Below, one piece after another: positions 2,171-56,762 of a DNA stretch of 64,000 nt. The DNA is taken from positions 774,738-838,737 of the forward strand of contig CAZFRF010000001.1 of NCBI GenBank assembly GCA_964521295.1, given 5' to 3'. The stretch comes from an uncultured Gammaproteobacteria bacterium (GTDB lineage Bacteria; Patescibacteriota; Microgenomatia; Levybacterales; UBA12049). How positions within the stretch are numbered: the stretch's first letter is position 1; every line of letters starts with the position of its first letter. Position numbers and translations under genes: made by a program. The notes beneath the pieces were generated by a model. It ran no database searches, had not been told where the DNA came from, and worked only from the letters and a program-made list of their open reading frames with translations.

Positions 2171-3214
2171 ATGTATATTCCTAAATTTTCAATTACAAGT
2201 AAGATACTTAAAAATATAGGTAGTATAGAGGCTTCAAAGGAAATTATTGATCACGCTCCACTTCTTCCGTATTTTGAAAAAGAATTCAGGCAATCAGCAA
2301 TGGTTAGGAGTGTGCATTATGGAACACATATTGAAGGTAATGAGTTGAATTTAACTCAAGCAGAAAAGGTGTTGATGGGGCAGGAGGTAGCGGGAAGAGA
2401 TAGGGATATTCAAGAAGTCATTAACTACAGAAAGGTTTTAGAATATTTATCTGCAGTAACAGGAGATGCAAAGATTACAGAAGAGACAATAAAAAAGATT
2501 CATGAGATTACAGTTGAAAAAATTTTAGCTGCAGAGCAAGCTGGGTTTTATAGACAAACCCAGGTGGTAATTAAAAATAGTCATACAGGTGAAGTTGCTT
2601 TTAGGCCACCACTTGCTATTGCCGTTCCATTCCAGATTAAGGAACTTTTGGCATTTATAGACAGCTCGCAAGAGCAAGATATTCATCCAATTTTGGAGAG
2701 CGGAATTGTTCATTATGAATTCGTCAGAATTCACCCTTTTGTTGATGGAAACGGAAGAGTCGCTAGGGCAATCGCAACATTAATCTTATATCTAAGAGGC
2801 TATGACATTAAAAAGTTTTTTGCCCTAGAAGAATATTTTGATAGAGACGCAATGGCATATTACGATGCATTACAAAGTGTTGAGAAAAAAGAAGGAGATT
2901 TAACAAATTGGCTAGAATATTTTACTTTGGGACTTGCTATTGAGCTGCAAAAAATTAGAGAAAAAGTTGAAAGTATATCAGTCGATGCAAGACTTAAAGA
3001 AAAGTTAGGCGGAGCACCAATTTTACTGACCCCTAGGCAAATAAAAATTATTGAATATATCCAAAAAGTAGGGTATCTTCAAAATCAAGCATTTGAAGGC
3101 CTATTTCCAATGATTTCTGAGGATACGATTCTTAATGAACTTAAGGGATTATTGACAGCAGGTTTAATAAAAAAACATGGGGTAACTAAGGGTGCAAAAT
3201 ATATAATGGCTTAA
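2171..3214 (+). CDS. Fic/DOC family protein (AMPylator-type) with C-terminal winged-helix region
   Basis: Canonical Fic motif 'HPFVDGNGRVARAIATLIL' (HPFx[D/E]GNGR). Confidence 0.85.
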   Translation: MYIPKFSITSKILKNIGSIEASKEIIDHAPLLPYFEKEFRQSAMVRSVHYGTHIEGNELNLTQAEKVLMGQEVAGRDRDIQEVINYRKVLEYLSAVTGDAKITEETIKKIHEITVEKILAAEQAGFYRQTQVVIKNSHTGEVAFRPPLAIAVPFQIKELLAFIDSSQEQDIHPILESGIVHYEFVRIHPFVDGNGRVARAIATLILYLRGYDIKKFFALEEYFDRDAMAYYDALQSVEKKEGDLTNWLEYFTLGLAIELQKIREKVESISVDARLKEKLGGAPILLTPRQIKIIEYIQKVGYLQNQAFEGLFPMISEDTILNELKGLLTAGLIKKHGVTKGAKYIMA

Positions 3215-3215: not shown

Positions 3216-4937
3216 ATGAAATTTAATACATTAATTGAATATTTCGAAAAATTAGAACAAACCTCATCAAGGCTTTCTTTAATAGAAATTCTGGCTAGTC
3301 TTTTTGCTGAAACAAAGACTGAGGAAATAGAAAAAATTGTTTATTTAATCCAAGGAAGACTTGCTCCATTTTTTGTGCCTTTAGAGATTGGTATGGCAGA
3401 GAAAAATGTAGCAAAATCCGTAGCTGCGGCTTTTAATGTGAGCGCAGAAGAGGTTACTAAAGAATTTAATAAATTAGGAGATATGGGCTTAGCAACAGAG
3501 CATTTTGTTAAGAATACAAAAGTATCAGATATTTCTGTAGATGAAGTATTTAGAATTTTAACTGAAATCGCTAATACTAAAGGTGAGGGAACAGTTGAGA
3601 AAAGACAAACTCTTTTAGCCGATATTTTAAAAAAAGTTGATGCAAAATCGGCAAAACATTTAGTTAGAATTCCTTTAGGAAATGTAAGACTGGGAATTGG
3701 TGATCCGACTGTTTTGGATGCGCTCGCTACTGCAAAATTAGGAGATAAATCACAAAGAAAAGTTCTTGAAGGAGCATATAATAAAACTTCAGATCTAGGA
3801 CTTATTGCTAAAACATTATGGGCAAAAGGTCTTGCTGGAGTAGAAAAATTAGAAGTAAGAGTTGGAAGCCCAATCAGATCTGAACTTTGCGAGCGCTTGC
3901 CAAGTCCAGTAAAAGTAATTGAAAAAATGGGAGAGGTTGATGCGCAGTACAAGTATGATGGTTTTAGAGTTCAGATTCATAAAGATGGTAAAAACGTCAG
4001 GATCTTTTCTAGAAACTTAGAGGAAATGACTCATATGTTTCCAGAGTTAATTCAAGCTGCAATTGAAGAAATTGATGCTAAAACAGTAATTCTAGATGGG
4101 GAAGCTTTAGCATATAATCCAGAATCAGAGGAATTTTTACCTTTTCAAGAAACAACCAAAAGAAGAAGAAAGCATGGAATTGAAGAAATGGCAGCCAAGC
4201 TTCCATTAAAAGCTTTTATTTTTGACATTTTATTTAAGAATGATCAGTCACTTTTAGATAAGCCACTTTCTGAAAGAATGGATATTTTAGCTAAAACCAT
4301 TCAGTCAGATGGGGTACTTATTAAAAGTAAAAACCAAGTAATTAAAGAAGCAAAGCCTCTAGCGGTTATGCTTGAGGATGCAATCTCTAAGGGATTAGAA
4401 GGGGTTGTTATTAAAAAGCTAGAGAGTCCTTACGAAGCCGGTGCAAGGAATTTTAACTGGGTAAAGCTGAAAAGACACAGTAGTGGAGAATTAAATGACA
4501 CGATCGATTGTGTCATCCTAGGATATATTACAGGGAAAGGCAAAAGAGCAGCTTTCGGAGCAGGAGCTCTTTTAGTGGGAATATATGATAAAAAGTTAGA
4601 TGAATTTGTAACAGTTTCCAAAATTGGCACAGGGCTTACAGATGATGAATGGAGAGAGGTTCATAAGAGAGCTGATAAAATAAAAGTTGATCATAAGCCT
4701 GCAAGAGTAAGTTCAACAATTGTTCCTTCAGTTTGGATTAAGCCCGAAATAGTAATAGAAGTTTTAGCTGATGAAATTACCAGAAGCCCAATTCATACTG
4801 CTGGAAAAACAAATGAAGATCCAGGTTATGCATTGAGATTTCCAAGGCTCGTTTCATTTAGGGGTAATGATAAAAAAGCAGAGGATGCAACCACAACAGA
4901 AGAGTTAATTGAAATGTATCAAAATCAAGGTAAATAA
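3216..4937 (+). CDS. ATP-dependent DNA ligase (archaeal/eukaryotic Lig-type)
   Basis: Adenylation motif I 'KYDGFRVQIH' (KxDG), motif III 'LDGEALAY', motif IV 'EGVVIKK', OB-fold C-terminus; 573 aa. Confidence 0.85.
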   Translation: MKFNTLIEYFEKLEQTSSRLSLIEILASLFAETKTEEIEKIVYLIQGRLAPFFVPLEIGMAEKNVAKSVAAAFNVSAEEVTKEFNKLGDMGLATEHFVKNTKVSDISVDEVFRILTEIANTKGEGTVEKRQTLLADILKKVDAKSAKHLVRIPLGNVRLGIGDPTVLDALATAKLGDKSQRKVLEGAYNKTSDLGLIAKTLWAKGLAGVEKLEVRVGSPIRSELCERLPSPVKVIEKMGEVDAQYKYDGFRVQIHKDGKNVRIFSRNLEEMTHMFPELIQAAIEEIDAKTVILDGEALAYNPESEEFLPFQETTKRRRKHGIEEMAAKLPLKAFIFDILFKNDQSLLDKPLSERMDILAKTIQSDGVLIKSKNQVIKEAKPLAVMLEDAISKGLEGVVIKKLESPYEAGARNFNWVKLKRHSSGELNDTIDCVILGYITGKGKRAAFGAGALLVGIYDKKLDEFVTVSKIGTGLTDDEWREVHKRADKIKVDHKPARVSSTIVPSVWIKPEIVIEVLADEITRSPIHTAGKTNEDPGYALRFPRLVSFRGNDKKAEDATTTEELIEMYQNQGK

Positions 4938-4938
4938 T

Positions 4939-6276
4939 ATGGATTATCTATCAGACTTACATCTTCATTCTAAATACTCCAGAGCTGTATCTCCGAGTAT
5001 GAATTTAGACATAATGGCTAAATTTGCTAGGGAAAAAGGATTAAATCTACTTTCAATTTCAGATTTTACTCACCCTGTTTGGCTAAAAGAAGTCAAGGCC
5101 AAGCTTAAGGAAACGCATGAAGGAATTTATGAGCTAGCGGATGAAATAAGTTTTCCAAAACCAGTATATTTTTTATTTTCTACAGAAATTGCCAGCATTT
5201 ATAAGCAAGGAGGAAAATTAAGAAGAATTCATAATTTAATCTTTGCTCCTAATTTAGAAACTGTTGAAAAAATTAATGCAGAGCTTATTAAAAGAGGAGC
5301 GAATTTAAATGCAGATGGAAGACCAATTATTGGTTTATCTTCAAAAGCATTATTGGAATTAATTTTAGAGATAGATAAGAATTGCATGCTTATCCCATGC
5401 CATGTTTGGACTCCGCATTTTGGAGTATATGGTTCAAAGTCTGGGTTTGATTCTTTAGCTGAGTGCTTTGAAGATTTAGAAAAATATGTTTACGGAATTG
5501 AAACTGGAATTTCTTCAGATCCAGAAATGAACTGGAGGATTAAGGAGCTCGAAAAAAGATCAATTTTGTCATTTTCTGATGCTCATAGTCCAGCCAATAT
5601 GGCAAGAGAAGCAACAACTTTTTCTTTATCTGAGATAACATATTCAAATATTAAAAAGGCAATCGAAAGAAGAGGTGGAGCAGAAAACAGAATCAGTTAT
5701 ACAGTTGAATTTTATCCGGAAGAAGGGAAATATCATTTTTCAGGACATCGAAACTGCGGCGTTAGCTTGTCTCCTTCAGAAATAGTTAATAATGGCAATA
5801 TTTGTCCAGTTTGCAGCAGGGAATTAACCGAGGGTGTTGCAATCAGAATAGATCAGTTAGCTGGTCCAAATTATTATAAAGATTACGAAGAAAAAGAAAG
5901 CCCTCTGGGGATTAAATGGTATACAGATTTAGCTAAACATCATCCGCCATATGTGAAATTAGTAAGGTTGATTCAAATTGTCGCCGAGAGTATGGGTTCA
6001 ACTGTAACTAGTCAGAAAAGTATAAATGTGTATACAAATCTAATGCAAGAATTTGGCGTTGAATTAGATATTTTACTTAAAACGAGCTTAGCTGATATTT
6101 CAAGAGTTGCAGGTTCGAGAATTGCTGAGGGAGTTGGAAAAGTTAGGAGAGGGGAGATTGAAATAAGGCCAGGATTTGATGGTGAATACGGTAAGGTTAA
6201 AATCTTTTCTGACGATAAAACTGGTAAATTAAACAAGGAAAATAATATAAGCTCACAGATTGGCATTGACTTTTAA
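4939..6276 (+). CDS. PHP-domain protein with Zn-finger, endonuclease Q (TIGR00375)-like
   Basis: PHP motif 'DLHLHSKYSRA' at N-terminus, internal 'CPVCS' zinc-finger-like Cys pair; start moved to ATG 4939 (in frame) to avoid overlap with ligase. Confidence 0.5.
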   Translation: MDYLSDLHLHSKYSRAVSPSMNLDIMAKFAREKGLNLLSISDFTHPVWLKEVKAKLKETHEGIYELADEISFPKPVYFLFSTEIASIYKQGGKLRRIHNLIFAPNLETVEKINAELIKRGANLNADGRPIIGLSSKALLELILEIDKNCMLIPCHVWTPHFGVYGSKSGFDSLAECFEDLEKYVYGIETGISSDPEMNWRIKELEKRSILSFSDAHSPANMAREATTFSLSEITYSNIKKAIERRGGAENRISYTVEFYPEEGKYHFSGHRNCGVSLSPSEIVNNGNICPVCSRELTEGVAIRIDQLAGPNYYKDYEEKESPLGIKWYTDLAKHHPPYVKLVRLIQIVAESMGSTVTSQKSINVYTNLMQEFGVELDILLKTSLADISRVAGSRIAEGVGKVRRGEIEIRPGFDGEYGKVKIFSDDKTGKLNKENNISSQIGIDF

Positions 6277-6317: not shown

Positions 6318-6773
6318 ATGGAAGTATTGGATACATACGCGAAACAAATTGCTAAACCACTTGAAGATATTTATGCAAAAGTTCCATCTCTCCCTGGAAA
6401 TATAAGAGAGATTTTAGTAAAAATAGCTCCTTGGTTATCATTAATTTTTGGTGTTCTTATGGTTTTAACTGGAGTAGGTGGACTTGGAGTGTTAACAGCG
6501 CTTTCTCCATTCGTTGCAGCATATGCTGGAGGAATGAGCGTTTTCTTCTTAGTATCTTCAATAGTAGTAATATTACAAGGCGTACTTATGTTATTAGCCT
6601 TTTCTCCTCTTAAGAAAAGAGTAGTAAGAGGTTGGAATTTGCTACTTTGGAGCGAGGTGTTAGCAGTTTTAAGTTCAGTCGTTACCTTAAGTGTTGGTAG
6701 CGTAATCGGAGCATTAATAGGTGCAGCAATTTCATTCTATTTCTTGTTCCAAATGAGGTCTTACTATAAATAA
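6318..6773 (+). CDS. small hypothetical membrane protein (3-4 TM)
   Basis: Perfect SD 'AAAGGAGGTGA' 8 nt upstream of ATG; highly hydrophobic. Confidence 0.5.
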   Translation: MEVLDTYAKQIAKPLEDIYAKVPSLPGNIREILVKIAPWLSLIFGVLMVLTGVGGLGVLTALSPFVAAYAGGMSVFFLVSSIVVILQGVLMLLAFSPLKKRVVRGWNLLLWSEVLAVLSSVVTLSVGSVIGALIGAAISFYFLFQMRSYYK

Positions 6774-6799
6774 AGGTATTTATAGAGAAACGTTTCTAT

Positions 6800-6843
6800 C
6801 AAAGATTACCTGTGTAAAAAATAGGTAATCTTTGATTTTTGTT
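6800..6843 (+). terminator. rho-independent terminator (12-bp perfect stem 'caaagattacct/aggtaatctttg' + T-run)
   Basis: Inverted repeat 6800-6811 / 6823-6834 followed by 'atttttgtt'. Confidence 0.55.
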
Positions 6844-6865
6844 AAAACATGTTAAAATACTAAAT

Positions 6866-9684: not shown

Positions 9685-9733
9685 TTGACAAATGCAAATA
9701 ACTTGCATATAATATGCAAATAATTCGCATTTG
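9685..9733 (+). promoter_or_regulatory. consensus sigma70 promoter (TTGACA-17-TATAAT) embedded in a 45-bp imperfect palindrome (candidate repressor operator)
   Basis: -35 TTGACA 9685-9690, 17-nt spacer, -10 TATAAT 9708-9713; arms 'caaatgcaaataacttgcatat' / 'atatgcaaataattcgcatttg' (19/22 complementary) centred on the -10 and overlapping ATG 9731. Confidence 0.55.
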
Positions 9734-10645
9734 TATATGATTAAAACAGAATTAAGTTCAGTATTAAAAGATACAGCAGGTTTGGCTCTTCAGGGCGGAA
9801 TTTTTGCGCCTGAGACTCCTTCTGGAATAGATCTATCTCCATCTTTACAGGTAATGGAAAAAAGATTAGTTGATGGTTTAAGAGAAAATGGTAGAGCAGT
9901 ATATGGATTAGATAATCCAGAGGGAATGGATTTTACAATGGCATTAGGTCCTTATGCAAAATTAATTTTGGTTTTTAAGCAACGCAGGGAAACTTTACCA
10001 ACTCCCGTGACAGCATTTGGAACTATTGCTCCAGACTCAAATTATTTATCAGGTCAATTAAGATTAGCATTTATGGCAAGATATAGTGGAGGAGCATTTC
10101 AGGTTCCCTGGGAATATGATCCAGATAATACATTAGTTAAGCCTTCTACAATTGATACTTATTTATCTGCGGTTAATGAATTAGGCTCAGTAGGAGACCA
10201 TGAGCCCTCTCGTCCAGTTTCAGTTGCAGATCCTAGGCATTTACTTACGGCAATGAGTGAGTTTAATTTAGGATCAGTTGCATCTTCGCAGATTAACTCT
10301 GTAGATGTAACTCAAAGGCCACATGTAGGCGATGTGTGGGAAGCGAATCGTGGAATGTTTCCAATTATTTCAGCTCAAGAAATGGGTAATTTAGAAAACG
10401 ATTTAGTATGGGCGCCATTTACAGTTACAAAAAAATATTCTAGATCTGATAGTTTGCCATTTGGAGTCATGTTAAAACCAGAAAATCTTGATTTAGAAGC
10501 ATTAGGTAGGGGAAGAATTGTACCAGCTAAAGCAAATATTCCTGGTTCTTTGGAGATGATTCAGCAATTAGGTTTTGCAACTCTTCTTACCAAGGGCAAT
10601 GCCGTTGATAATTTTAAAAGAATCCTAGAAAGGAGAGTTGTTTAA
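9731..10645 (+). CDS. hypothetical protein (304 aa), Ala/Gly/Pro-rich, no family recognised
   Basis: First gene of cassette; composition and GC (~38-40%) above flanking genes; acidic, Lys-poor. Confidence 0.55.
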   Translation: MYMIKTELSSVLKDTAGLALQGGIFAPETPSGIDLSPSLQVMEKRLVDGLRENGRAVYGLDNPEGMDFTMALGPYAKLILVFKQRRETLPTPVTAFGTIAPDSNYLSGQLRLAFMARYSGGAFQVPWEYDPDNTLVKPSTIDTYLSAVNELGSVGDHEPSRPVSVADPRHLLTAMSEFNLGSVASSQINSVDVTQRPHVGDVWEANRGMFPIISAQEMGNLENDLVWAPFTVTKKYSRSDSLPFGVMLKPENLDLEALGRGRIVPAKANIPGSLEMIQQLGFATLLTKGNAVDNFKRILERRVV

Positions 10646-11130
10646 TGATGCCTTATGTTGAGGCTTTTACTCCTCAGAAAAGAATTGAACCAATTGTTCC
10701 CCAGGCTACTCAATCAGAATGGGAGCTTGGTGGAGCCGTTTTTCAGTTTGGCTCTATGGAGGAAATGCTTTCTGCCGCTCAACAGCCAATAGTAGAAGTA
10801 GGAGAGGTGAAATTAGAGCCTTCTTTAAATATTGAGGATGATTTCTCCCGTGCTCGTAGAATAATTAATGCAAATTTAGGCGTCTTTACTCAATTGCAAA
10901 GTTCAATTATGATGCGTGCTCAACAATTACAGATTGCTTGTCATCCTCATAATTCATCAATGACAACTATGACATCTCCAATGAGTAATTTAGGAAACGG
11001 TGAATTTGCTAGCGGCGCATTCCTAGGAAATTTAGGAGGAGAAAAACAAACTCATTCTACTGAGCAGCATGGTCACTGTAGTTCATGCGGAGCAGATTTA
11101 AAAGGTGGAAAATGTCCAAAATGTTCATAA
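10645..11130 (+). CDS. hypothetical protein (161 aa) with C-terminal zinc-ribbon
   Basis: Start overlaps upstream stop (ATGATG/TAATG coupling); C-terminus 'CSSCGADLKGGKCPKCS'. Confidence 0.5.
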   Translation: MMPYVEAFTPQKRIEPIVPQATQSEWELGGAVFQFGSMEEMLSAAQQPIVEVGEVKLEPSLNIEDDFSRARRIINANLGVFTQLQSSIMMRAQQLQIACHPHNSSMTTMTSPMSNLGNGEFASGAFLGNLGGEKQTHSTEQHGHCSSCGADLKGGKCPKCS

Positions 11131-11143
11131 AGGAGGTGATTAA

Positions 11144-11308
11144 GTGAAATTTTACAATGTCAAAACAAGACAATCCGTTGAAATTGATGACTCTAAAGTC
11201 CAGGTCATAACAATGAAAAACGGAAAGTTAGCAGCTAAAGCTGAAGATAATGGAATTGGTTTATTCAAAATATTAAGCAGAGAAGACGCTGCAAGACTCA
11301 ACAAGTAA
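11144..11308 (+). CDS. unannotated 54-aa protein (GTG start), SH3-barrel/Sul7d-like pattern
   Basis: Perfect SD 'AAGGAGGTGA' then GTG at 11144; ORF VKFYNVKTRQSVEIDDSKVQVITMKNGKLAAKAEDNGIGLFKILSREDAARLNK*; followed by terminator; not in supplied ORF track (track has an antisense ORF 11152..11376 instead). Confidence 0.45.
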   Translation: MKFYNVKTRQSVEIDDSKVQVITMKNGKLAAKAEDNGIGLFKILSREDAARLNK

Positions 11309-11330
11309 TTGATCTGTATTTTACGCAATA

Positions 11331-11362
11331 CATGGGAGACCTTTGGTCTCCCATGGTGTTTG
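11331..11362 (+). terminator. rho-independent terminator 'catgggagacc-tttg-ggtctcccatg' + T-rich tail
   Basis: 11-bp perfect GC-rich stem 11331-11355 followed by 'gtgtttgt'. Confidence 0.65.
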
Positions 11363-11388
11363 TAAAAAGTTTGCATTAAATTTACAAT

Positions 11389-15741: not shown

Positions 15742-18700
15742 GTGGAAGAAAGCTCTTTTGTTGATAATAAAATCGCTTCATCGTCAAATCTAAATAATTC
15801 TAGCGTGGATTGGCTAAGAAAGAATCTTAAATTTATTTTTCCCTGTGTTTTGGTTGTGTTTTTGCTCTTTTTTATAGGTTTATTGTTATTTAATAAGCAA
15901 CCAAATGAGAAAATAATTGCCGTAAAAGGAGTAGAGGATTCAAGAATAAAAACAGTAGGTTATATTGTTGAATTTAAAGACCCACCTTTAAATAATTTAT
16001 CAAGAACTAATGAGTCATTCTATTCAGCTAAAGAGAAGGCTGCTGATAGTGTTTTAAGTATTTTAAATAAGAATGCTTTTTCTTTAACAAGCAATGATGT
16101 CAATAATCTAAAAGTAAGAGCTCAGTTTAGTAGTGTTTTAAATGGAATTGCAGTTGATGTTACAGAGGAAGAAGCAGAAAAGATAAAAGAATCTCCTTAT
16201 GTTAAGGCTGTATATCCTGATCGTGAAGTGCGAGTAAATCTTTATCAATCAGTTCCTTTAATGGGAGCAAATAGAGTTTGGGAGTTGACTGATCAGGCAA
16301 ATAATAATGTAACAGGTAAGGGAGTTAAGGTTGCAATTTTAGATACAGGCGTGGATTATACAAATGCTGATCTGGGCGCAACGCCTCTTAAAGAAAGGTC
16401 TTTGACTAAAATTACTCCAAAGCCATTATTTGATGAATTTTTAGCATATTGGGATCATACGATTGCCTATGATAAAGATAGGCTTTTATATCCATTAAGT
16501 AACGATTCAGTGGGTATTTATTCATTTAAAGATAAAAAACTAACTAAAGTTAATTTATCTACTCCAATTTCTAAGCCTGGAATAGATAGAGTATTTTTAG
16601 AAGGACAGAAAATTATTTATATGTCTGCTAATTCGAAACAAATGGGTTTGTTTGTTAAGGATTTGACAACAAATAAAACTACCAAAATTTCCGATCTCGG
16701 TCAAATAGGGCATTGGGCAACAGCTGGTAATGTTGATTACTCAAACGGGAATGTAATTTATGCTAGCAGAACAGGATCAAAAGATGCAAAAGGAAGAGTT
16801 TTATATAATATTTATTCTTACGATCTTTCGGCTAAAAAACAAACAAAATTAATAGACAATACGACTTCACTCCCCGCGATTCATGTTTATGGAAAAACAT
16901 TAATTTATTCCTTGTTTATCTCTAAAGACAAGGGATATAGGATTTTTAAAATTGATTTAAACACCAACAAAAGACAAGTTTTGTATGTTCCTAAAGCAGG
17001 GCAATTGGTAGATTTTAAAGGAGATAATATTTTATATGCAGCTAATGCTAAATTGGGTTACAGATCTTATTATCTTTATAATCTAGTTACAAAAAAAGCT
17101 CAAGAAATTCATTATCCAGCGGATGATAATTCAGTGCCAAATAAATATTATAAATCCGAGTCCCAAGCATGGACTGCTTTTGCTGAGCCTGATTATCCAG
17201 AAGGATTTATTGGAGATGGCGTAGTTTTCTTTGAAACAAGCTTTATTTCAGATGTTGGCAAGATGGCCGTATATGATTTAAATAATAATAAATACGCAAA
17301 GATAAATGTGATTATACCATCCTCTACGGTTACAGGATCTGGAAATAGAATTTGTTTTATTTCTTCTGGAGACCTAAATATTTATTGTCATGTTTATGAT
17401 CCGAACTATAATTATGCACTTCCTACGAATTTATTTAATTCTAAGGTTGTTGGGGGATACAATTTTATTGATAACAGCAACAATCCAATTGATGATATGG
17501 GTCATGGTACGCATGTGGCAGGAATAGTGGGGGGAAATGGATCTTTAAAGGGAGTTGCTCCAGGAGTTGAGATAGTTGCATATAAGGTTTTGGATTATTC
17601 AGGTTCTGGTAGTACTTCCAAGATTCTTTCAGCAATTGATGCGGCGATAGCAACAAGGCTTGATGATGATCAGACAAATGACATTTCTGTACTAAGTATG
17701 AGTTTGGGCGCTTATTGTGATAAATATGATGCGAAATGTGGGCCAAATGATGTTTTGTCGCGTGCTGTAGATAGAGCAAGTGTAAATGGAATTACTTCTG
17801 CAATTTCTGCTGGTAATGATGGTCCTTATAACTCGAGTATTAATAGTCCTGGTACGGCAAGGACAGCAATTACTGTGGGAGCAGTTACTAAATCCAAACA
17901 AATAACTTCGTATAGCTCACGAGGTCCAGTAATTTTGGGAGATGAAGTTATTCAAAAGCCGGATGTATTAGCTCCAGGGCATGATATTTGCTCATCTTTG
18001 CTTAATGGTTACGCTTTGCCAGGTGATGAGCGGTGTTTTGATAATAAACATATTTTCATGTCGGGTACAAGTATGGCAGCACCTCATATTGCAGGAGTTG
18101 TTGCTTTGATTAAGCAAATGTATTCTGATTGGACACCATCTGAAATAAAAAATGCGATCATGAGCAATGCGGACTTATTAGTTTATCCAGCAAATACACA
18201 AGGAGCAGGATTTGTTAATGTAGCTAGAGTATTTTCTCTATTTCCAAGTCCAACTTCCACTTTAACTCCGACTCCTACTAATATAAGTAATTCAAGCGTT
18301 GTTAAGACAGTTAAGACAATTGAGCTTCAGCCAATTGCTGATACATATGTAAAATCTGATCAGGTTAATACAAATTTTGGTAAAGGAGCAACGCTTATTG
18401 CTGATAATGATTCGATTGCTTATAGCTATCTTAAGTTTAGTCTGAATAGCCTTAAAGGTAAGACTCTTTTGAAAGCTACTCTGCAGGTTCAAGTAGCACC
18501 AGGAGCTGATTCTGAATCAACTTTATCTAAGGGAATTCAGGCTTATTTAGTTAATAACACATCGTGGTCTGAAATAAATTTGAATTACAAAACTAAATTA
18601 AAAAATGACAAGCTGCTTGCAACTCTAAGCGGAGTCAAAGAGTCTGGAGACGTGCTTTCTTTTAATATTACTTCAGGTATCAGTGGTAAATTTGGCTCGT

Positions 18701-18801
18701 TAGTCTCATTATCTTTAGTAAATTTGGGAACAGATGGAATTGCTTTTAATTCCAAAGAAGCAACAGTGGGTAAGCCTAAGTTAATCATAGAATACAAGTA
18801 G
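15742..18801 (+). CDS. membrane-anchored S8 subtilisin-like serine protease with I9 propeptide, inserted beta-propeller and C-terminal beta-sandwich domain
   Basis: GTG start; TM near N-term; catalytic Asp 'AILDTGVDY', His 'HGTHVAG', Ser 'SGTSMAAPH'; ~380 aa between Asp and His with TolB-like repeats. Confidence 0.85.
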   Translation: MEESSFVDNKIASSSNLNNSSVDWLRKNLKFIFPCVLVVFLLFFIGLLLFNKQPNEKIIAVKGVEDSRIKTVGYIVEFKDPPLNNLSRTNESFYSAKEKAADSVLSILNKNAFSLTSNDVNNLKVRAQFSSVLNGIAVDVTEEEAEKIKESPYVKAVYPDREVRVNLYQSVPLMGANRVWELTDQANNNVTGKGVKVAILDTGVDYTNADLGATPLKERSLTKITPKPLFDEFLAYWDHTIAYDKDRLLYPLSNDSVGIYSFKDKKLTKVNLSTPISKPGIDRVFLEGQKIIYMSANSKQMGLFVKDLTTNKTTKISDLGQIGHWATAGNVDYSNGNVIYASRTGSKDAKGRVLYNIYSYDLSAKKQTKLIDNTTSLPAIHVYGKTLIYSLFISKDKGYRIFKIDLNTNKRQVLYVPKAGQLVDFKGDNILYAANAKLGYRSYYLYNLVTKKAQEIHYPADDNSVPNKYYKSESQAWTAFAEPDYPEGFIGDGVVFFETSFISDVGKMAVYDLNNNKYAKINVIIPSSTVTGSGNRICFISSGDLNIYCHVYDPNYNYALPTNLFNSKVVGGYNFIDNSNNPIDDMGHGTHVAGIVGGNGSLKGVAPGVEIVAYKVLDYSGSGSTSKILSAIDAAIATRLDDDQTNDISVLSMSLGAYCDKYDAKCGPNDVLSRAVDRASVNGITSAISAGNDGPYNSSINSPGTARTAITVGAVTKSKQITSYSSRGPVILGDEVIQKPDVLAPGHDICSSLLNGYALPGDERCFDNKHIFMSGTSMAAPHIAGVVALIKQMYSDWTPSEIKNAIMSNADLLVYPANTQGAGFVNVARVFSLFPSPTSTLTPTPTNISNSSVVKTVKTIELQPIADTYVKSDQVNTNFGKGATLIADNDSIAYSYLKFSLNSLKGKTLLKATLQVQVAPGADSESTLSKGIQAYLVNNTSWSEINLNYKTKLKNDKLLATLSGVKESGDVLSFNITSGISGKFGSLVSLSLVNLGTDGIAFNSKEATVGKPKLIIEYK

Positions 18802-21222: not shown

Positions 21223-21295
21223 TGGGCCCGAAGTTTACCCGGTTGAACGCCTCATTTGCAATGAGGAGGTAGGGAGTTCGACTCTCCTCGGGTCC
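21223..21295 (+). tRNA. tRNA-Ala (anticodon UGC)
   Basis: Manual fold: acceptor gggcccg/cgggtcc with G3:U70 Ala identity pair, D-stem gttt/gaac, anticodon stem cctca/tgagg, loop 'tttgcaa' (anticodon tgc), T-arm gggag-ttcgact-ctcct; CCA not encoded. Confidence 0.85.
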
Positions 21296-21389
21296 ACAAG
21301 TGTTTTATTTATTTGCGCGTAGCGCTTTCCAGTATGCTCTGGACGCTACCCGCAAATAAGTAAGAGTTGGCTCTTTAAAAAGTGAAGAG

Positions 21390-24640
<3,251 letters not shown>

Positions 24641-24698
24641 ATTAAATTTTTCTTATCTTCACCTTTTAGAGGGCCAAATTTACTTAATTGAAATTTTT

Positions 24699-24812
24699 CC
24701 CGGTGTTTTTAGCGAAGCGGCACCACCTCTTCCCATTCCGAACAGAGAAGTGAAACGCTTCAGCGCCTACGATACTGAGCATGGGCTCGTGGACAATAGG
24801 TCAATGCCGGGA
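24699..24812 (+). rRNA. rrf: 5S ribosomal RNA
   Basis: 'ccaccucuucccauuccgaacagagaagugaaacgcuucagcgccuacgauacug' 5S loop B/C-helix III consensus; helix I cccggug/...gccggg; T-run after. Confidence 0.8.
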
Positions 24813-40261: not shown

Positions 40262-43200
40262 ATGCTTAACCTGCCCATAATCAATTCTAGAAAAATTTTC
40301 ACGCTACTAGCAATAGTTATTTTAGCCATAGTTTTCTTAAGTCTAAAACCATTTGTTTTTGCTGCTACGGGTATTCCACGAACAATTAATTTCCAAGGTA
40401 AATTAGTAAACAACTCTTCAGGAATTAATGTTACAAATTCAACTTACTCAGTAGTTTTCACGCTTTACGATAAAGATTCAGGGGGAACAGCTTTGTGGAC
40501 TGAGACTCAAAGTGTTACAACTGTTGATGGAATTTTCAGGGTTGCCTTGGGTTCAGTAACCCCAATCCCTTCTAATTTTAACTTTAACTGGGATGGTTTG
40601 TATCTGGGTATGAAAGTTGGAGCAGATTCAGAAATGACTCCAAGAATTCAAATGGCTTCAGTTCCATTTGCATTCAATTCCCAAAAAGTAGCAGGGTTAA
40701 CTGTTCAGGATACATCAGGTAATGCTTCAACTTCTGGAACTCTACAGATTGCAAATGCAAAAACCATTAACCTGGGTACACAAAACCTTACCTTGACCAC
40801 AACAGGAGATACGACAATCACATTGCCTACAACGGGAACTTTACTTACAAATTCTGCAACAGCAGTACAGACAATAACCTCTACTCAGGGAACTGGCACG
40901 GTTTTAGCTGTCGCTGATTCATCGGCACTTTCTGGAGCATTAACTGGATTTGCTGTTAATTTAACCTCTTCGACCAATAGTCAGAATAAGACTGGTCTTA
41001 GTTTTGATCTTTCAGGTGGTACTGGTGCGACATATTACGATATATTAGGTACTGGTAGTACATGGAGTATTACTAGAGCTGGTGTATTAACTGTTTCTTC
41101 ATGTACGGGTTGTGGAGGAGGAGGCGCAAGTTATTGGAATTTAGTTTCTGGTAATGGAGTTTCAAATGGTGGATACATAACACCAATTAATTCAACCGCA
41201 GATTTCTTTTTGGGTGGTCAGGCAACAACATCTGCAAAATTTGGAGTGCTAAATTTAAATTCTGGAATTCCAATCGCAACAATTGCTGGTAATTTTGTTA
41301 TTCAGCCTCAACTGGGTGGAGGAGGAAGGTTAGGAATTGGAACTGATCCATCTGTCTACAATTATCTAATTGATGCAACTAAAGATATTAACGATATTTC
41401 AACCGTTAATGTTTGGAATCCAAATTTAGGAAGTGCTGCTTGGGCTGGATTTAGAGCAGGTGGCTCACAGTCTAGTGGCGATAACATTCAACTTCTTTTT
41501 ACTGGTAGTCAGCAAGGAGGCAGTGCATTAAATAGAATTGCTAGCTCAGCATTACTTGAATCAGGCTCAGGCGCAAGTGGAGGATTAATTTTAATAACTG
41601 ATCATTCTTCTGCACCGATAATTTTCGCAACTGGCGGAAATGCTTTAACCAATGAGAGATTAAGGATTACTTCTACGGGTGTCTTAAGTTTGGGTAGTAC
41701 TTCCGGAGAATCACAGCTAAGCGTTACTAGGCCTTTGTCGTGGGGCGCTACTGGTAAATCCTTAGCTATACTTAATCAAATTGAAAATCAGGATATTTTC
41801 ACAGCTTCTGCTTCAGGAACTCCAGTTATAACAATTTCTAGGGCTGGAGGATTGGGAATCGGTGGAGGACCAGGCTCAAGTCCAAATTACGGAACAGGCT
41901 CAAATTGTCTTTTAGGAGGAACTACTATTTCCTGGGGGTCTTGTGCGGCTGGTTCTGGAGATGGAATAGATAGATGGCAAGTAAACAATGGAGTGTTATC
42001 TCCTGGAAACCAAACCTTGGATTTTGCTGTTGGCGGAACAGCTTCGACATCTGCAAAATTATTAGTGTCTCAGTTGGGAACTAATGCAATAGCTTCAGTT
42101 GCTGGTTCAACTTCTTTTTCAGCATTAGTAGTTGATAATAGTGGTACAGGAAGTTTATTTACCGCATCTTCTTCTGGATTAACGAGATTTGTAATTAACA
42201 AAAATGGCGGAGTTGGTATTAATACAGCATCAATTGGTGATGGCCTAGAGCTAGATGTTAATGGAAGCGCAAGAATTGGAACAACTGCAGTTGCGGCTCC
42301 AGATGATATTATGAAAACTGATACTACAGACTTTACAGTTAGTGGGTATAGCGCAACTACTGTAACCACGAGCGGAGATAAGATAACTTTGCCTGTAAAT
42401 CAAATAGCCAGCGCAAAAGTTCCAGCAGCAGGACCAAATACAACATATGCGGTTGCAACCTGGTCAGCTGCTTTAACCAGAGCAGATGGAAAAGTGTTAG
42501 TTATAACAGGTGATTCCGCCAATACATCAGGTAATGTAAGAAAAACAACCATTTATGAATCTAGATCTAATACTTTTTTAGCAGGTCCTTCTTTAGTTAA
42601 TACACCACATGCCTCAAATGCTGCTGTATTTCAGCTTGCTAATGGTACTTTCTTAGTTGCTTTGGGAAATGGATCGCAAATTTATAATCAAGCTGGTGTT
42701 AATGGTACGGGAAGCTTTACCCAAGGAGCTCCTTTAATGGCTAATCCGGCATCTCCAAATACAAATTCAGTTGTGGGTGCAGGTGCCCGTTTTATTAGAA
42801 GGTTTGATGGCTCATTAATTTTAATTTTAGGTGGGAATAGTACTATGACAAATATTTATAATCCAACTAATAATCAATTTATTTATGGACCTAGTTTAAC
42901 AACAGGTGTTGCTTCAGGAAGTGCAGTATTCCAAAGACCAGATGGGAAATGGATTGTTGTCGTTGGTGGAGGAACCAGTACTACTAATATATATGATCCA
43001 TCGCTTGGAAATGGTGGTGCTTTTACCGCAGGACCAGCTCTTGCTGCTGGAAATGCAAATTATGGAGCTAATGTTTTTCAATTATCAGATGGTAGATTCA
43101 TGTTGATTAACGGTGGAGGAACGAATACTACTAATATATACAATCCTATTTCTAATACTTTTACATCTGGTCCAACTTTAACAACAAATGTTGGTTCGGG

Positions 43201-46200
43201 TTCTCAAACAATCCAAAGATCAGATGGTAAATGGTTGGTAGTGGCTGGTGGAGGATCAAAAGCTGTAAATTTATATGATCCAACAACAAATACATTTAGT
43301 CAGCCTGCAAATTCTGATTTAACAGCTCCAGCTGGAGTTGGCGCAGTTACATTCCAGAGAGAAGATGGAAAATATATAGTAGTTCATGGAGGAAATTATA
43401 ACGTTGGCGTAAACGTTGTCTCGACAACTCTATATGATGCAGGTTGGCAAACTAGTGGTATTTGGATTTCTGAGGATATAAATAATACAAAAATATCAAC
43501 TTATTCAGCTATATCATGGGTTTCAAATCCACAAATAGCTGCAACGCCTTCGTCAAACGTTACATTTCAGGTTAAAACCTCTCCTACCCAGGGAGGATTA
43601 GCTACAGCTACTTGGAATACTATTGCGAATACAGGTGATTTAATTCAAGCTGTAGCTGGAGCGCAATGGATAAAGATTCAAGCTTTGTTTGCAGCTCAAA
43701 TTCCTCAACCATATACAGTAAGTATTCCTAATAATATTCAATCAGGAGTTTGGCCAGCTGAGGGAGGAGTTTCGTACTTTAGGTATGCATTAGAACCTAC
43801 TTTATTCAGAATTAGAATTATTAATCCAATTGCGGGTTATGGAGGTTGGGTTTCAACAGATTTATATAATGGTAGAAATGAAGCAACTCAAGGTGCTGTA
43901 CTGGATAATGTTGTAATTGATAATACAAATAGATTAACTCTGGCTACAAATAGATTTAATGGTTCTGCTTCAGCGTCTGCGGGTGTAATTATTGCTTCTG
44001 CTTCAGCAAATTTGGGTGGAGCTGCTGGAGCTGGTTCAGTTACCATAACCTTGCCAAGTGGTAAGTTATTAGTAATACTAGGTCAAGCTAAAAACTCTAC
44101 TGTAATTTACGATCCTATTACAGGTCAATCTACTGCAGGTCCAATTTTGTCATCCGCAACAACAACAACTGGTACGTTTGCTTTCCAAAGACCTGATGGT
44201 AATTTTGTTGTAGTTATAGGAGGAACAGCAATTACTAATATCTATAATGTTTCCTCAAATACTTTTTCTGTCGGTCCGTCTTTGTCGGGAAATGCAGGAA
44301 CTGGAGCCCATGCGATTCAAAGGCCAGATGGAAAGTTTGTTATCTTTAGAGGAGGTACAACTGTATTTACAAATATTTATGATCCAATTTCGAATTCAAT
44401 GGTTGATGGACCACAGGTTACAGGAGGCTCTGTTGGTGCTGGAGCATTTTCAATTAGAAGATCTGATGGAAGATATTTAACAATTTTAGGAAATAATACT
44501 GCTGTAGTAAATTTATATGATCCATATCAAAATTCCTTTACCTTAGGAGCTGCTGTATCAGGTGCAGTAAGTACAAATGGTAATGGAATTATGCTTCCTA
44601 ATGGTAGAGTTTGGGCAACTAGAACAACAACTACTTCGGAAACTATTAATCCATTAGTAACAGCTGAGCCTGTAGCTGCCTCAGGTTATTCAGTTGCAGG
44701 TCCTGCTATTACTTCAATTGGTGTTGGTTCTCATATGATTCCAATGGCTGATGGCAAGGTAATGCTTTTTACTGGAAATTCTGTTTCATATAACGTTTAT
44801 AACCCTGCAGCTAATACAATGGTTGTATCATCAACTGGTACAGTTGCCGTTGGTGCATTACCACAAACCGTGGGAGATGGAGCTCAGTCAATTCAGCTTC
44901 CGAATGGTAAGTTTTTAGTTATCTCTGGAAACAATACAACAAATACTATGATTGTTGATACGGGTTTTGTTATGAATGGCACCTATATTTCTGAGCCTAT
45001 TTATGCACCTACATTGAGTAGTGCTACTTCACTTCTATGGAAGAATGTCGGCGGAGGAAATGTTAATGCAAAATATAGGACAGCAGCATCAAGTACCGCT
45101 TTAACAACTACTCAATGGGTAGACTTAGAAAAAGATGATGGAGCGCTTGCACCAAATCCAGGCGATCAATGGGTACAGATAAGACTTGATTTGCAAGCCT
45201 ATCTGCCTAAACAGCCTTATGAAAAAGTAAATGTTACCTCTAATACTTCTGCTGGAGGATTTAGATACTGGCAAGCTCCATCGGCTCCAATATTGCAATA
45301 TTGGAGATTAGTTAATAATACGGATCCGAATTTATTGGTTATGACTAGTGGTGGACAAAGACAGTTTAGATTTCAGGCTGATGGTCAAGCATTTACTGCT
45401 TTAAATGGAGCTTGGAATACGGGTGGAGCAGATTTGGCAGAAAGATATACTTCTAAAGAGGTTCTCGAAGCAGGAGAGGTGGTTGTTGGTGATAAGTTTA
45501 ATGCTCAAAATGTTATAAGAGCGACGACTCCGTATCAGTCTAATATTATGGGGGTGGTTTCAACTCAGCCAGGTTTTGTAGCTGGTGCATATACTCCTGA
45601 TTCATATCCAATTGCTTTAGTTGGACGTGTTCCCGTTAAGATTTCAAATGAAAATGGTGAAGTTAGATCAGGTGATTATTTAACTTCTGCATCAATTCCT
45701 GGATATGCAATGAAAGCAACAGTTGCTGGAAGAGTTTTGGGAACTGCTTTGGAAGATTTCGATAGCACTAAAGAAACAGTTGAATGTCCAACTGATGGTT
45801 ATGGCAGTATTGGTACAACGAGATGTGGAGTTATTACTGCCTTTATTAATTTAACAAGCTATACAGGTGCTGACATTGAGACATTGATGGCTGATAGAAA
45901 CTTCGCATTAGGAATTTCTCAGACAGGACTTCAGTCAGACTCATTCTTAAATGGAGTTGATGAAAAAGATAGAAAGATAGTTGAGTTCTTAAAATCTCTT
46001 AAAGAAGAAAACGGTGTGGAGTCTAATTCGCAAATGTTTACAGGAAGACTTTCTGCTGTTAAAATTTTAAGCTCAGATATAGTTGCAGATTTAATTACAG
46101 CAAAAACAATTAGAGCAGATAGAATTGAAGGCTTGGAAATTTTAACGAATCAAATTTCAAGCTTAAATTCGAGATTAAATACCCTAACTAGTACGGGCTC

Positions 46201-56100: not shown

Positions 56101-56755
56101 GGGCTTGTTTTAAATGTTTTTTAAGAATTAAAGATCGAGATAAAACATAGACGATAAAGCAAAGAAAAAACACGTACCAAAGTGTCGCCGCATATGCAGA
56201 TGGACTGTTAAATAAGGTCAATATTGCAAATAGAAGTAAATTTTTTGTTCTATTTTCTGAATCTAGAAAATTAGTTGCAAAAAGAAAAATAAAGGGTAAA
56301 GTTGCAAAAAGAGTAGTAAACATCTCAAAAGGAACGTTAAAGATTTGCAATGTTCCATAGTTTAATAGATAGAATAGTCCTCCCAGAAATGCTGCTAATT
56401 TATTTTTTAATAAATGTTTTTCTAAAAATAAATACATTCCAATTGGTCCGAGTATTAAATTTAGAAAAATATATGAATAGCGAAGTAAGGATTCGGGAAG
56501 AATGAAATGCTCTAGGTAGAGAAGAAAGATTCTGGGTAAATCAGCCATGTGGGAATGAGCGGTGACCGCACCTAGGCCTTGCTCTGGTCTAAATACTCCA
56601 AAAATTGTTCTTTGGAAATTTAAATTAAAGTTAAATTCTGGGTGGAGGGTATCCCAGCCTGAAAGAAAAGTATTGGGAGTGTAATTTAAAATAGATAACA
56701 AGGTTGAAATTAAGAATAGAAAAAGAATAGGCCAGTATTTTTTAAAGAGGTTCAT
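53108..56755 (-). CDS. large (~1215 aa) polytopic membrane protein, YfhO/GT-C-like N-terminal TM region + large extracytoplasmic Asn-rich C-terminal domain (track start 56818 alternative)
   Basis: ~14 TM in first 480 aa, then soluble domain, final TM; start set at ATG 56755 (MNLFKKYW) 8 nt after GT2 stop rather than 56-nt overlap. Confidence 0.5.
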   Translation of the reverse strand: MNLFKKYWPILFLFLISTLLSILNYTPNTFLSGWDTLHPEFNFNLNFQRTIFGVFRPEQGLGAVTAHSHMADLPRIFLLYLEHFILPESLLRYSYIFLNLILGPIGMYLFLEKHLLKNKLAAFLGGLFYLLNYGTLQIFNVPFEMFTTLFATLPFIFLFATNFLDSENRTKNLLLFAILTLFNSPSAYAATLWYVFFLCFIVYVLSRSLILKKHLKQALSLIFITLLINSFWLVPNLYFVLNHAKEVQNANINLLFSEQAFLKNKEFGNLSSVLLLKNFYFDWSIYKGGGQFIDLLSFYINYLKNFPILVFGYTFGFVSIAGLIYFAKTKAKEALPFLILFIISLFFFVNANFPFTPLFNFFQNHIPFFQEALRFPQDKILNIHIFLIAIFFAFACKLIISKVSEQSAYIFTFIVFIILAIYNLPSFNGNLINKLVRVNIPTEYFQLFTYLNTQNSNLKVANLPISSPWGWVYYNWNNQPSFQGAGFLYFGIKQPLLDRDFDRWNPKNESYFREMSYAIYSKNSTLLQNTIEKYQIGFILLDRSVIDPEHEDSSLYFSESEELLQETGLIKARQDFGKITLFTLKTNPELIRKIGTNLNISPEYSTTYIDSAYASFGDYIIARDNFNLHSINFPFRNLLNNQSKANPQLISANNETITFTPQTNLTIPTNNLISKQDNLFANLIIEKKTDNLNVALYPISPIFDNSSLTTPIRSSVETKELSSDLLLSINENQVFELNNLPTDTPVALDKISLKNSGNTISIFDKSGFIPLTNIQVQLNPFFSGCKDKSSLSAIFSPSQIKISAQEDICMLVPYGFFPEETKDLNILTNFSFDTQTKAKVNACLFSQETSKCIYYLNPNKNNTTYTFSIPLNAKNSNTRAIKIFFENENKPQKLTLQNFAASYSKSLGDINIPNSLINQEQINSELSFNKIYVPLSNAINPGFDILAIDKLTNDCQGKNNIASKTLETINGVKQIKYDTSLGLFCDHFSYPNLNHQSAYLLIIEAKNANGLPLNICLTNYTTRRCDIYTSLTNAKEFTKNLFIIPATEKEGIGYDLNIEANGIKGTKSTNYLKSIEFVPIPYEMLNNLEEINNTNVTNFSGNITNYSELSPSMYLINTNGKAFILNLNYSFEKGFKAYPINCSSQLSCALKSLLSPFITKELEHVMVNNWSNGWITQGNKQIVIIFLPQYLELLGFGLLIITLSFVTLKHIRKSK

Positions 56756-56762
56756 ATTTTTA

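Follow-up and report, generated by a model that had tools for sequence, protein, structure and literature searches.

The window analyzed in this study, representing a stretch of 64,000 nucleotides in total, carries an ATP-dependent DNA ligase gene directly followed by the gene of an endonuclease Q (EndoQ) homolog. The ORFs and coordinates of the first-pass annotation proved to be exact, and the homologies are too strong to be due to chance (E-values of 4e-128 for the ligase and 4e-46 for EndoQ). Both genes are individually ordinary members of known families residing in a Levybacteria-like chromosome (Microgenomates, CPR). With a probability of roughly 0.6, the two ordinary repair genes were identified correctly and their adjacency reflects inherited Microgenomates gene order, and not a self-sufficient two-gene module.

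The ATP-Dependent DNA Ligase

The ligase gene (positions 3216–4937, plus strand) encodes a protein of 573 aa that was classified as belonging to the Lig1/archaeal type, as deduced from Pfam, TIGR00574, and relatives in the PDB. DNA-binding, adenylation, and OB domains were recognized by the Pfam models DNA_ligase_A_N, _M, and _C, and the TIGR00574 (dnl1) model scored 428.4 bits (E-value 4e-128), being above its curated cutoff of 217.8. The best solved relative was the S. solfataricus (Sso) ligase 2hiv, matched over the full length (6e-125). Motif I, KYDG, was located by a regular expression search of the translation at residues 246–249 (positions 3951–3962, plus strand), K246 being the predicted adenylated lysine, and aligns to the KYDG of the Sso enzyme. 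The nucleotidyltransferase motifs I–VI are complete (KYDG with K246, FIFD, EGVVIK, WVKLK, and RFPR), and the archaeal/eukaryotic-type assignment made in the first-pass annotation was thus corroborated by the family score, the three domains, and motif I.

LigA and PolA were not found among the large ORFs of the window, and a tblastn search with an approximate E. coli LigA query gave no match either in the window or in roughly 2 Mb of related loci. A Lig1-type ligase in place of LigA in Microgenomates would, if true, be surprising. The Lig1-type enzyme neighboring EndoQ is probably a general-purpose cellular ligase, because it is more strongly conserved, is kept when EndoQ is lost, and has intein-bearing homologs.

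The Endonuclease Q Homolog

The second gene (positions 4939–6276, plus strand) encodes an EndoQ homolog of 445 aa, an assignment based on PDB entry 5zb8, TIGR00375, an AF2 model, and Foldseek. Since homologs begin with MxYVxDLHLHS, ATG 4939 is regarded as the real start of the gene, for which the ORF list gives TTG 4909. The protein comprises PHP catalytic, Zn-binding, and C-terminal helical domains, followed by a disordered tail with a clamp-binding-like motif. In the phmmer comparison with PfuEndoQ (5zb8), residues 5–437 were aligned to Pfu residues 5–397, i.e., over the full length (E-value 3.8e-46), and the AF2 model (pLDDT 88.5) retrieved 5zb8/7k30 as top Foldseek matches (E-value 1e-34, TM 0.79–0.89, 423–438 columns). 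The TIGR00375 search proposed earlier gave a mixed outcome: the whole profile was spanned (positions 3–374 of 374, E-value 1e-48), but the score of 166.5 bits fell below the curated cutoff of 326.6. The Pfam profile search yielded no match for this protein, PF27218 being present in precomputed annotations only. The homolog is a member of a divergent bacterial clade, which is rich in Patescibacteria and contains 8000 or more clusters at the 90% identity level. In NCBI annotation, homologs of this protein carry the name ‘endonuclease Q family protein’, and those of the ligase, ‘ATP-dependent DNA ligase’.

The PHP motif DLHLHSKYS, already recognized in the first-pass annotation together with an internal CPVC, occupies residues 6–14 (positions 4954–4980, plus strand), and its predicted metal ligands H8 and H10 map to Pfu H8 and H10. 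Altogether, the Pfu metal ligands H8, H10, E76, H84, H139, and D193 correspond to H8, H10, E83, H98, H155, and D214 of the window protein, and the essential Pfu residues R114 and H195 to R128 and H216. Among 80 loci, these positions were found to be invariant in every locus covering them (L033 lacks the N-terminus), except for the H8 position, where about 20 loci have Q or E instead. The lesion pocket, for which residues are listed in PMC5961232 and PMC8307549, is represented by H155, T158, E188, G190, I191, and S192 (Pfu H139, T142, E167, G169, L170, and S171), I191 being a conservative L-to-I change. The wedge Trp in the beta7-alpha5 loop (Pfu W144) is not kept; the window protein and its closest subclade have H160, while most other bacterial homologs have W at this position, and the adjoining position 161 is mostly F and in a few cases Y.

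The predicted Zn-binding site (positions 5746–5814, plus strand) takes the form H270-x2-C273 ... C289-x2-C292, the CPVC corresponding to residues 289–292 (nt 5803). Of the 80 bacterial loci, 79 share this H-C-C-C arrangement and the remaining one (L032) has H-H-C-C, whereas PfuEndoQ has a C4 site (C249/C252/C268/C271). Histidine is able to ligate Zn. Alignment upheld the expected EndoQ catalytic residues and a putative Zn site of four residues, but not a C4 arrangement.

At the C-terminus, the hexapeptide QIGIDF (positions 6256–6273, plus strand) was recognized as a candidate beta-clamp-binding-type motif; residues 427–445, preceding and including it, have pLDDT values below 50 and form a low-confidence disordered tail. 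A QxxLF or QLxLx[FIL] ending is present in 73 of 81 EndoQ homologs, and C-terminal clamp-binding motifs were reported for bacterial EndoQ homologs (PMC4858679).

The missing Pfam match and the sub-cutoff TIGR00375 score, together with the replacement of the wedge Trp and of the first Zn-site Cys by His, could suggest that the PHP protein is another phosphoesterase of the RNase AM or YcdX type and not a lesion endonuclease. Such an assignment is very improbable, given that homology and predicted fold span all three EndoQ domains, that other PHP enzymes match the PHP domain only (TM about 0.3, E-value 5e-6 or weaker), and that the mutationally essential EndoQ residues are all kept (PMC5961232).

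Local Gene Layout

The ligase stop codon TAA (4935–4937) is followed by a single T (4938) and the EndoQ ATG at 4939, in agreement with the 1-nt spacing noted earlier, and the same junction occurs in a relative (L161) that is 92–94% identical. The stop codon of the preceding Fic gene is likewise separated from the ligase ATG by 1 nt. This Fic gene (positions 2171–3214, plus strand), the first of a tight same-strand string, encodes a SoFic-like Fic-domain protein of 347 aa (Pfam Fic, 8e-21), which was matched nearly over its full length by the PADLOC SoFic model (3.9e-49) and features the motifs HPFVDGNGR (residue 188) and GTHIEG (residue 51); the protein has an inhibitory-helix-like motif of its own. 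Its position upstream of the ligase is fixed and syntenic (49 of 54 ligase-centered loci). The description of this neighbor as Fic toxin-like was therefore right as to the Fic domain, but the toxin label appeared to be too specific for a SoFic-type protein in a conserved syntenic position. The nearby recF, also named in the first-pass annotation, is cut by the left end of the window, where its Walker A motif GPNTIGKT was seen at nt 1–60.

The last gene of the putative unit (positions 6318–6773, plus strand), preceded by a GGAGG ribosome-binding site, encodes a small multi-pass membrane protein (TM) of 151 aa that had no family match in Pfam, NCBIfam, and PADLOC; in 15 loci, the TM gene was located downstream of EndoQ, with a median spacing of 78 nt. 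Ahead of pth, the Fic–Lig–EndoQ–TM string is ended by a terminator-like hairpin with a 16-bp stem and a T run (positions 6798–6846, plus strand), which represents the sole plus-strand terminator-like site between positions 1700 and 7600. Because of the 1-nt spacers and this single hairpin, the four genes are probably co-transcribed in the source genome. As a separate observation, the window EndoQ is closest to the homologs of loci L001–L012, but for the ligase, Fic, and orf92, the nearest homologs are those of L017–L026. This could hint at a discordant history of EndoQ and its neighbors, although the differences are small (61% vs. 54%).

Conservation of the Ligase–EndoQ Pairing

The order of ligase and then EndoQ was found to be kept across Microgenomates within a long block, recF...Fic–Lig–EndoQ–TM–Pth–orf92, with the same order and strand in 55 of 80 EndoQ-centered loci and 46 of 53 ligase-centered metagenome loci. 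Conservation of the pairing, on which the first-pass annotation made its proposal depend, holds for this gene order within Microgenomates, but not for close adjacency, since the two genes lie at most 100 nt apart in only 9 of 55 genome loci and 11 of 53 metagenome loci (about 15–20%), and in none outside the clade. The gap exceeds 600 nt in 33 of the 55 loci; the products encoded there include glycosyltransferases along with a cation exchanger, a P-type ATPase, and proteins of the DedA type.

Linkage was compared for 51 EndoQ-centered genome loci featuring at least 6 kb on each side. The ligase was located upstream of EndoQ in 39 of these loci, peptidyl-tRNA hydrolase (Pth) downstream in 35, and both in 34, at median distances to EndoQ of 1458 nt for the ligase and 1037 nt for Pth. 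Within 100 nt of EndoQ, the ligase was encountered five times and Pth three times, and within 1 kb each of them 16 times. The linkage of the ligase to EndoQ is thus not tighter than that of Pth. Four ligase-centered metagenome loci (L090, L098, L112, and L119) lack EndoQ and have kept ligase, Fic, and Pth, and in EndoQ loci of Dehalococcoidia, Parcubacteria, Saccharibacteria, and Minisyncoccales, neither a ligase within 8 kb nor a repair gene recurring as a neighbor was detected. Junctions of at most 15 nt recur in about 16 loci with ligase identities of 64–80%, so that tight adjacency may represent the ancestral state, which selection may have preserved in some lineages.

Some observations speak against a reading as inherited order. 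The 1-nt junctions and the shared terminator would indicate real co-expression in the source genome, and in relatives, RecF, Fpg/Nei, and a free-standing 5'-3' exonuclease are also encoded in the wider neighborhood. Repair genes in this region may be more numerous than chance would predict, and selection for clustering could be involved. A possible, albeit considerably less probable, explanation is a loose repair neighborhood, in which the 5'-3' exonuclease/FEN, Fpg/Nei, RecF, ligase, and EndoQ are kept in one district without a strict operon, for example, owing to shared replication-linked dosage or regulation. Levybacteria relatives show the order FEN–GT4–Fpg–recF–(hydrolase/gpsA)–DUF5654–Fic–Lig–EndoQ, about 35 loci have Fpg a short distance upstream of recF (22 nt apart in L088), and FEN and ligase represent the very activities that have been proposed to act after EndoQ in its pathway (PMC4357722). 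However, the repair genes of the district are broken up by unrelated genes and one minus-strand gene; FEN was seen in three loci only, namely those with flanks reaching far enough, and the FEN–Fpg region is known from relatives and lies beyond the window.

The first-pass annotation had proposed a compact two-gene repair module, which would imply that EndoQ nicks the lesion, that it is specifically partnered by the co-translated ligase, and that the operon is under selection. This proposal turned out to be weakly supported, and we consider it unlikely. The 1-nt spacing without a terminator between the two genes, the retained order and strand, and the recurring short junctions are what such a module would predict, but unrelated genes are inserted between ligase and EndoQ in many other loci, Pth is linked equally well, the association does not extend beyond Microgenomates, and the ligase persists in the four loci that have lost EndoQ. 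Moreover, T4 ligase rejoined the EndoQ product into a full-length strand that still carried the lesion (PMC4357722), and since direct ligation in this way restores the damaged strand, the two genes cannot complete repair.

In a far more speculative scenario, which appears quite improbable, Fic–Lig–EndoQ–TM would constitute an ancestral Microgenomates operon, in which an archaeal-type ATP-dependent ligase, possibly the sole one and replacing LigA, and a beta-clamp-tethered EndoQ would together form the core of a glycosylase-independent incision repair, with Fic regulating one of them by AMPylation/de-AMPylation. An anti-phage island, serving defense and not housekeeping repair, would combine the SoFic-like Fic, matched by PADLOC, with EndoQ attacking phage DNA that contains uracil. 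This would be in line with a proposal, cited in PMC8307549, that the EndoQ of Bacillus may have an antiviral role and is not inhibited by phage Ugi. Such an island is the least credible of all explanations: the ligase, EndoQ, and TM protein (and orf92) had no PADLOC match, no integrase or mobile-element signs were detected in 1–12 kb, and Fic, ligase, and EndoQ reside at a fixed syntenic site near recF and pth across the whole class, whereas defense genes are typically patchy and mobile.

Proposed Repair Function and Significance

Under the preferred reading of two ordinary repair genes in inherited order, the pocket formed by H155, T158, E188, G190, I191, and S192 would accept a flipped-out deaminated base or abasic site, and EndoQ would cut by means of the PHP metal center H8, H10, E83, H98, H155, and D214, assisted by R128 and H216, as suggested by the conserved residues and the fold. 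As an EndoQ family member, it would be expected to incise on the 5' side of dU, dI, dX, or an AP site and to leave 3'-OH and 5'-P ends. By analogy to the PIP box of archaeal EndoQ and PCNA, the disordered tail with QIGIDF probably tethers the enzyme to the beta sliding clamp. Besides a ligase, the pathway proposed for EndoQ requires a polymerase and Fen1 (PMC4357722), and because a ligase can reseal the EndoQ nick without prior removal of the lesion, polymerase and 5' nuclease functions are needed here as well. Polymerase and 5' flap/exonuclease activity would remove the lesion, and only thereafter would the nick be sealed, most simply by the neighboring Lig1-type ligase.

The importance of the locus is modest: EndoQ is very common in CPR/Patescibacteria, though the literature describes mainly archaeal and few bacterial cases. 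The bacterial clade examined has a signature of its own, consisting of the H-C-C-C Zn site, the beta-clamp-type tail, and an additional beta-hairpin, and in genome-reduced bacteria, EndoQ may be a main route for the removal of uracil and hypoxanthine. As a caution, tight spacing in streamlined genomes is not evidence of a functional module.

Comparison with Known Systems

Searches of a literature library revealed no report linking EndoQ or an ATP-dependent ligase to CPR, Patescibacteria, or Microgenomates, and a paper on a complete Microgenomates genome makes no mention of ligase. The closest characterized counterpart is PfuEndoQ (PF1551; PDB 5ZB8, 7K30–7K33), and the likeness to archaeal EndoQ pointed out in the first-pass annotation was borne out by full-length homology with the three-domain architecture, the predicted fold, and the catalytic residues. 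Shared features comprise the six metal ligands, the R114/H195 equivalents, the pocket H/T/E/G/S, and equivalents of K243 and Y244. However, identity to PfuEndoQ is about 29%, the basic Pfu residues R201, R251, K276, and K320 are not kept, and the window protein features insertions at about 64–70 and 84–90 and a conserved beta-hairpin at about 311–335 (GIKWYTD). At the C-terminus, the window protein has a motif of the bacterial beta-clamp type, whereas PfuEndoQ has a PIP box. The EndoQ of Bacillus pumilus/B. subtilis (Shiraishi et al. 2017, as cited in PMC8307549) is, according to its description, a bacterial member of the same family.

The same logic as in the archaeal pathway of EndoQ, PCNA, PolB, Fen1, and ligase (PMC4357722, PMC4858679) is expected here, namely 5' incision, clamp tethering, strand displacement, flap removal, and Lig1-type ligation. 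Since the host of the window is a bacterium, the clamp would be DnaN, and the polymerase and 5' nuclease would be of bacterial type; in contrast to the archaeal pathway, the ligase gene happens to adjoin EndoQ in the window. In P. furiosus and T. kodakarensis, the two genes are presumably not adjacent.

The Sso ligase (2HIV) and human LIG1 resemble the window ligase in the DNA-binding, adenylation, and OB domains and in every motif (6e-125 and 2e-71, respectively), but the window ligase has a bacterial host. LigD models, by comparison, scored it far under their cutoff (TIGR02776, 136 bits vs. 373). The Ku–LigD pair of NHEJ is similar in that an ATP-dependent ligase gene adjoins the gene of a repair partner, and differs in that the window locus is devoid of Ku. 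Ku–LigD represents a genuine bacterial two-gene module with a ligase and co-occurs across phyla, whereas the ligase–EndoQ pairing does not.

Gene Arrangement and Expression

Four genes follow one another on the same strand, namely a Fic-domain gene (2171–3214), the ATP-dependent DNA ligase gene (3216–4937, 573 aa), the gene for the endonuclease Q (EndoQ) homologue (4939–6276, 445 aa), and a membrane-protein gene (6318–6773, 151 aa). The first-pass annotation was accurate in every detail of these open reading frames, their coordinates, and the 1-nt ligase–EndoQ spacing, as checked against the ORF list and the raw sequence; the neighbourhood it described, with the adjoining Fic gene and recF nearby, was likewise recovered, recF being cut by the left window edge (Walker A motif at nt 1–60). 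One base separates the Fic stop codon from the ligase ATG, and the ligase TAA is followed by a single T (4938) and the EndoQ ATG at 4939. In the mechanical ORF list the EndoQ frame opens at TTG 4909; since the homologues begin with MxYVxDLHLHS, the real initiation codon is ATG 4939, as annotated. The 1-nt spacers, a strong ribosome-binding site upstream of the membrane-protein gene, and the position of the sole terminator-like hairpin found on the plus strand (6798–6846) indicate that the four genes are probably co-transcribed in this genome. Identical junctions occur in a relative with 92–94% identity (L161), and ligase–EndoQ junctions of ≤15 nt were seen again in approximately 16 loci.

The multi-pass membrane protein is conserved but matched no family. 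In Levybacteria, its gene lies directly 3' of EndoQ (median distance, 78 nt), and it has the terminator in common with the upstream string.

Identity of the Two Repair Proteins

The PHP protein matched the profile TIGR00375 over its whole length (1e-48), but its score of 166.5 bits was below the curated cutoff of 326.6, and no match was obtained with the local Pfam copy. The alignment with Pyrococcus furiosus EndoQ (PfuEndoQ, PDB 5ZB8) covered residues 5–437 (3.8e-46). An AlphaFold model computed from 54 homologues was confident (pLDDT 88.5, pTM 0.88), and its sole strong structural matches were EndoQ crystal structures (E 1e-34, TM 0.79–0.89), other PHP enzymes matching in the PHP domain only. 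Mapping onto PfuEndoQ, for which essential residues were reported by Miyazono et al. (PMC5961232), revealed that all six metal ligands (H8, H10, E83, H98, H155, and D214) are kept, as are R128, H216, the lesion pocket (H155, T158, E188, G190, I191, and S192), and the equivalents of Pfu K243/Y244. The full-length EndoQ fold and the conserved residues exclude, for practical purposes, another PHP phosphoesterase. In many homologues from Gottesman- and Woesebacteria, metal ligand H8 is replaced by Gln or Glu.

The ligase carries all three Pfam domains typical of Lig1-type enzymes, scored 428 bits against TIGR00574 (cutoff 218), and could be aligned over its full length with human LIG1 (2e-71) and, more strongly, the Sulfolobus solfataricus enzyme (6e-125), with motifs I, III, IV, V, and VI intact. 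Thus, the earlier identifications of an archaeal/eukaryotic-type ligase and of an EndoQ-like protein were both right, and the motifs named for them were all found (KYDG at residues 246–249, DLHLHSKYS at 6–14, and CPVC at 289–292). Among the nearest relatives, identities are higher for the ligase (76–83%) than for EndoQ (57–74%), and in four loci (L090, L098, L112, and L119) Fic, ligase, and the peptidyl-tRNA hydrolase gene (Pth) are kept while EndoQ is missing. Three close ligase homologues (P0148, P0233, and P0234; 915–918 aa, 80–82% identity) contain an intein with a LAGLIDADG domain within the adenylation domain. Judged from sequence, the higher conservation, the survival of EndoQ loss, and the intein-bearing homologues would fit a general cellular enzyme.

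Conservation of the Ligase–EndoQ Pairing

Conservation was evaluated in two sets of 80 loci, one centred on EndoQ and drawn from species-representative genomes, the other centred on the ligase and drawn from metagenomes; the window neighbours were located in both by tblastn. The order recF–(gpsA/hydrolase)–DUF5654(-)–Fic–ligase–EndoQ–membrane protein–Pth–orf92 is widely kept in Levy-, Gottesman-, Woese-, and Blackburnbacteria. EndoQ loci from Dehalococcoidia, Parcubacteria, Saccharibacteria, and Minisyncoccales lack this order and had neither a flanking ligase nor a recurrent repair gene. EndoQ lies downstream of the ligase in 46/53 metagenome loci; however, gaps of ≤100 nt were limited to 9/55 genome and 11/53 metagenome loci, and 33 of the 55 genome loci had gaps of >600 nt. 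The inserts encode glycosyltransferases, a Ca/Na exchanger-like protein, a P-type ATPase, DedA-type proteins, a small four-helix-bundle protein, and others. Among 51 EndoQ loci flanked by 6 kb or more on both sides, the ligase was present in 39, Pth in 35, and both in 34, with similar median distances to EndoQ of 1458 nt (ligase) vs. 1037 nt (Pth); each of the two lay within 1 kb in 16 loci. The ligase is therefore tied to EndoQ no more tightly than an unrelated housekeeping gene, and the pair is loose within the clade; the pairing is kept as gene order within one class, and the tight adjacency expected of a two-gene module was not borne out.

Fic and ligase form a tighter pair (≤600 nt in 43/50 and 37/54 loci), observed for the SoFic-like gene of the window and in loci L002–L160. 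To our knowledge, this class-wide Fic–ATP-ligase pairing has no known explanation.

Functional Interpretation

T4 ligase rejoined the EndoQ product into a full-length strand that retained the lesion, and the proposed EndoQ pathway requires strand-displacement synthesis and Fen1 before ligation (Shiraishi et al., PMC4357722). A pair that nicks and seals is thus an incomplete repair system, and acting alone it would cycle futilely. Both gene identities of the first reading stand, but the compact module is unsupported beyond co-expression in some lineages.

A loosely kept repair-gene neighbourhood around recF, ligase, and EndoQ appears rather doubtful. In relatives whose flanks extend past recF, a Fpg/Nei glycosylase gene lies close upstream of recF in approximately 35 loci (ending 22 nt before the recF start in L088), and a GT4 glycosyltransferase and, two genes upstream of Fpg/Nei, a stand-alone 5'–3' exonuclease (FEN-like) were found in Levybacteria (L088:279–3601, also L085 and L100). 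The district thereby appears unusually rich in repair genes, among them the flap nuclease required by the EndoQ pathway; however, those upstream of recF lie outside the window, and unrelated genes and a minus-strand gene interrupt the series. Defence against phages by Fic and EndoQ, in line with the Fic match to the PADLOC SoFic model (3.9e-49) and the proposed action of EndoQ against uracil-DNA phages (PMC8307549), is unlikely, because Fic, ligase, and EndoQ hold a fixed syntenic position across a class. A Fic-regulated ancestral operon, built on a LigA-replacing Lig1-type ligase and a clamp-tethered EndoQ, would be highly improbable.

Further Features of the Window

Between the YibE_F gene and fur, two ORFs of 304 aa and 161 aa (the latter ending CSSCGADLKGGKCPKCS) at 9731–11376 had no family match; L161 lacks both, which marks some 1.7 kb here as a strain-specific insertion. 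Genes for tRNA-Ala, 23S, and 5S rRNA were located at 21224–24812, and no 16S gene was found anywhere in the 64-kb window. The 23S match is 3245 nt long for a model of 2925 nt, suggesting insertions; none of the intron families attained its Rfam gathering score. Two very large ORFs (2192 aa, 40262–46840, and 1236 aa, 53108–56818, minus strand) had no Pfam match; near them are genes for a subtilase (15742–18801) and a sulfatase (61628–63871), both of which carry a CBM96 domain at the C-terminus.

Comparison with Known EndoQ Proteins

The closest genomes belong to Levyibacteriota/Levybacteria and other Microgenomates. EndoQ homologues comprise at least 8000 clusters at 90% identity, the named sources among the top matches being mostly Patescibacteria. 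Homologues are already named 'endonuclease Q family protein' at NCBI and 'ATP-dependent DNA ligase' in existing annotation, and both genes are of known kinds; no link between the bacterial EndoQ clade and CPR bacteria was found in the literature searched.

Although the metal ligands, R128, and H216 correspond to PfuEndoQ, the putative structural Zn finger noted earlier differs, as the position of its first ligand is taken by His (H270) instead of Cys. His holds this position in 80/80 related bacterial loci, with H-C-C-C in 79/80 and H-H-C-C in L032. The proposed wedge residue Trp144 of PfuEndoQ is His160 in the window protein and its closest subclade (L001–L012, L016, L020, L032, L040, and L045), and Trp in most other bacterial homologues. 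Several basic residues by which PfuEndoQ contacts the DNA backbone are not conserved. Residues 427–445 form a tail that is predicted as disordered and has QIGIDF as its last six residues. The beta-clamp-binding motif has two canonical forms, QxxLF and QLxLx[FIL], and one or the other makes up the C-terminal end in 73/81 homologues. Clamp motifs in bacterial EndoQ homologues were noted before by Shiraishi et al. (PMC4858679), who also described the stimulation of archaeal EndoQ by PCNA, mediated by a PIP box. The window protein is a further member of this known family, within a bacterial EndoQ clade.
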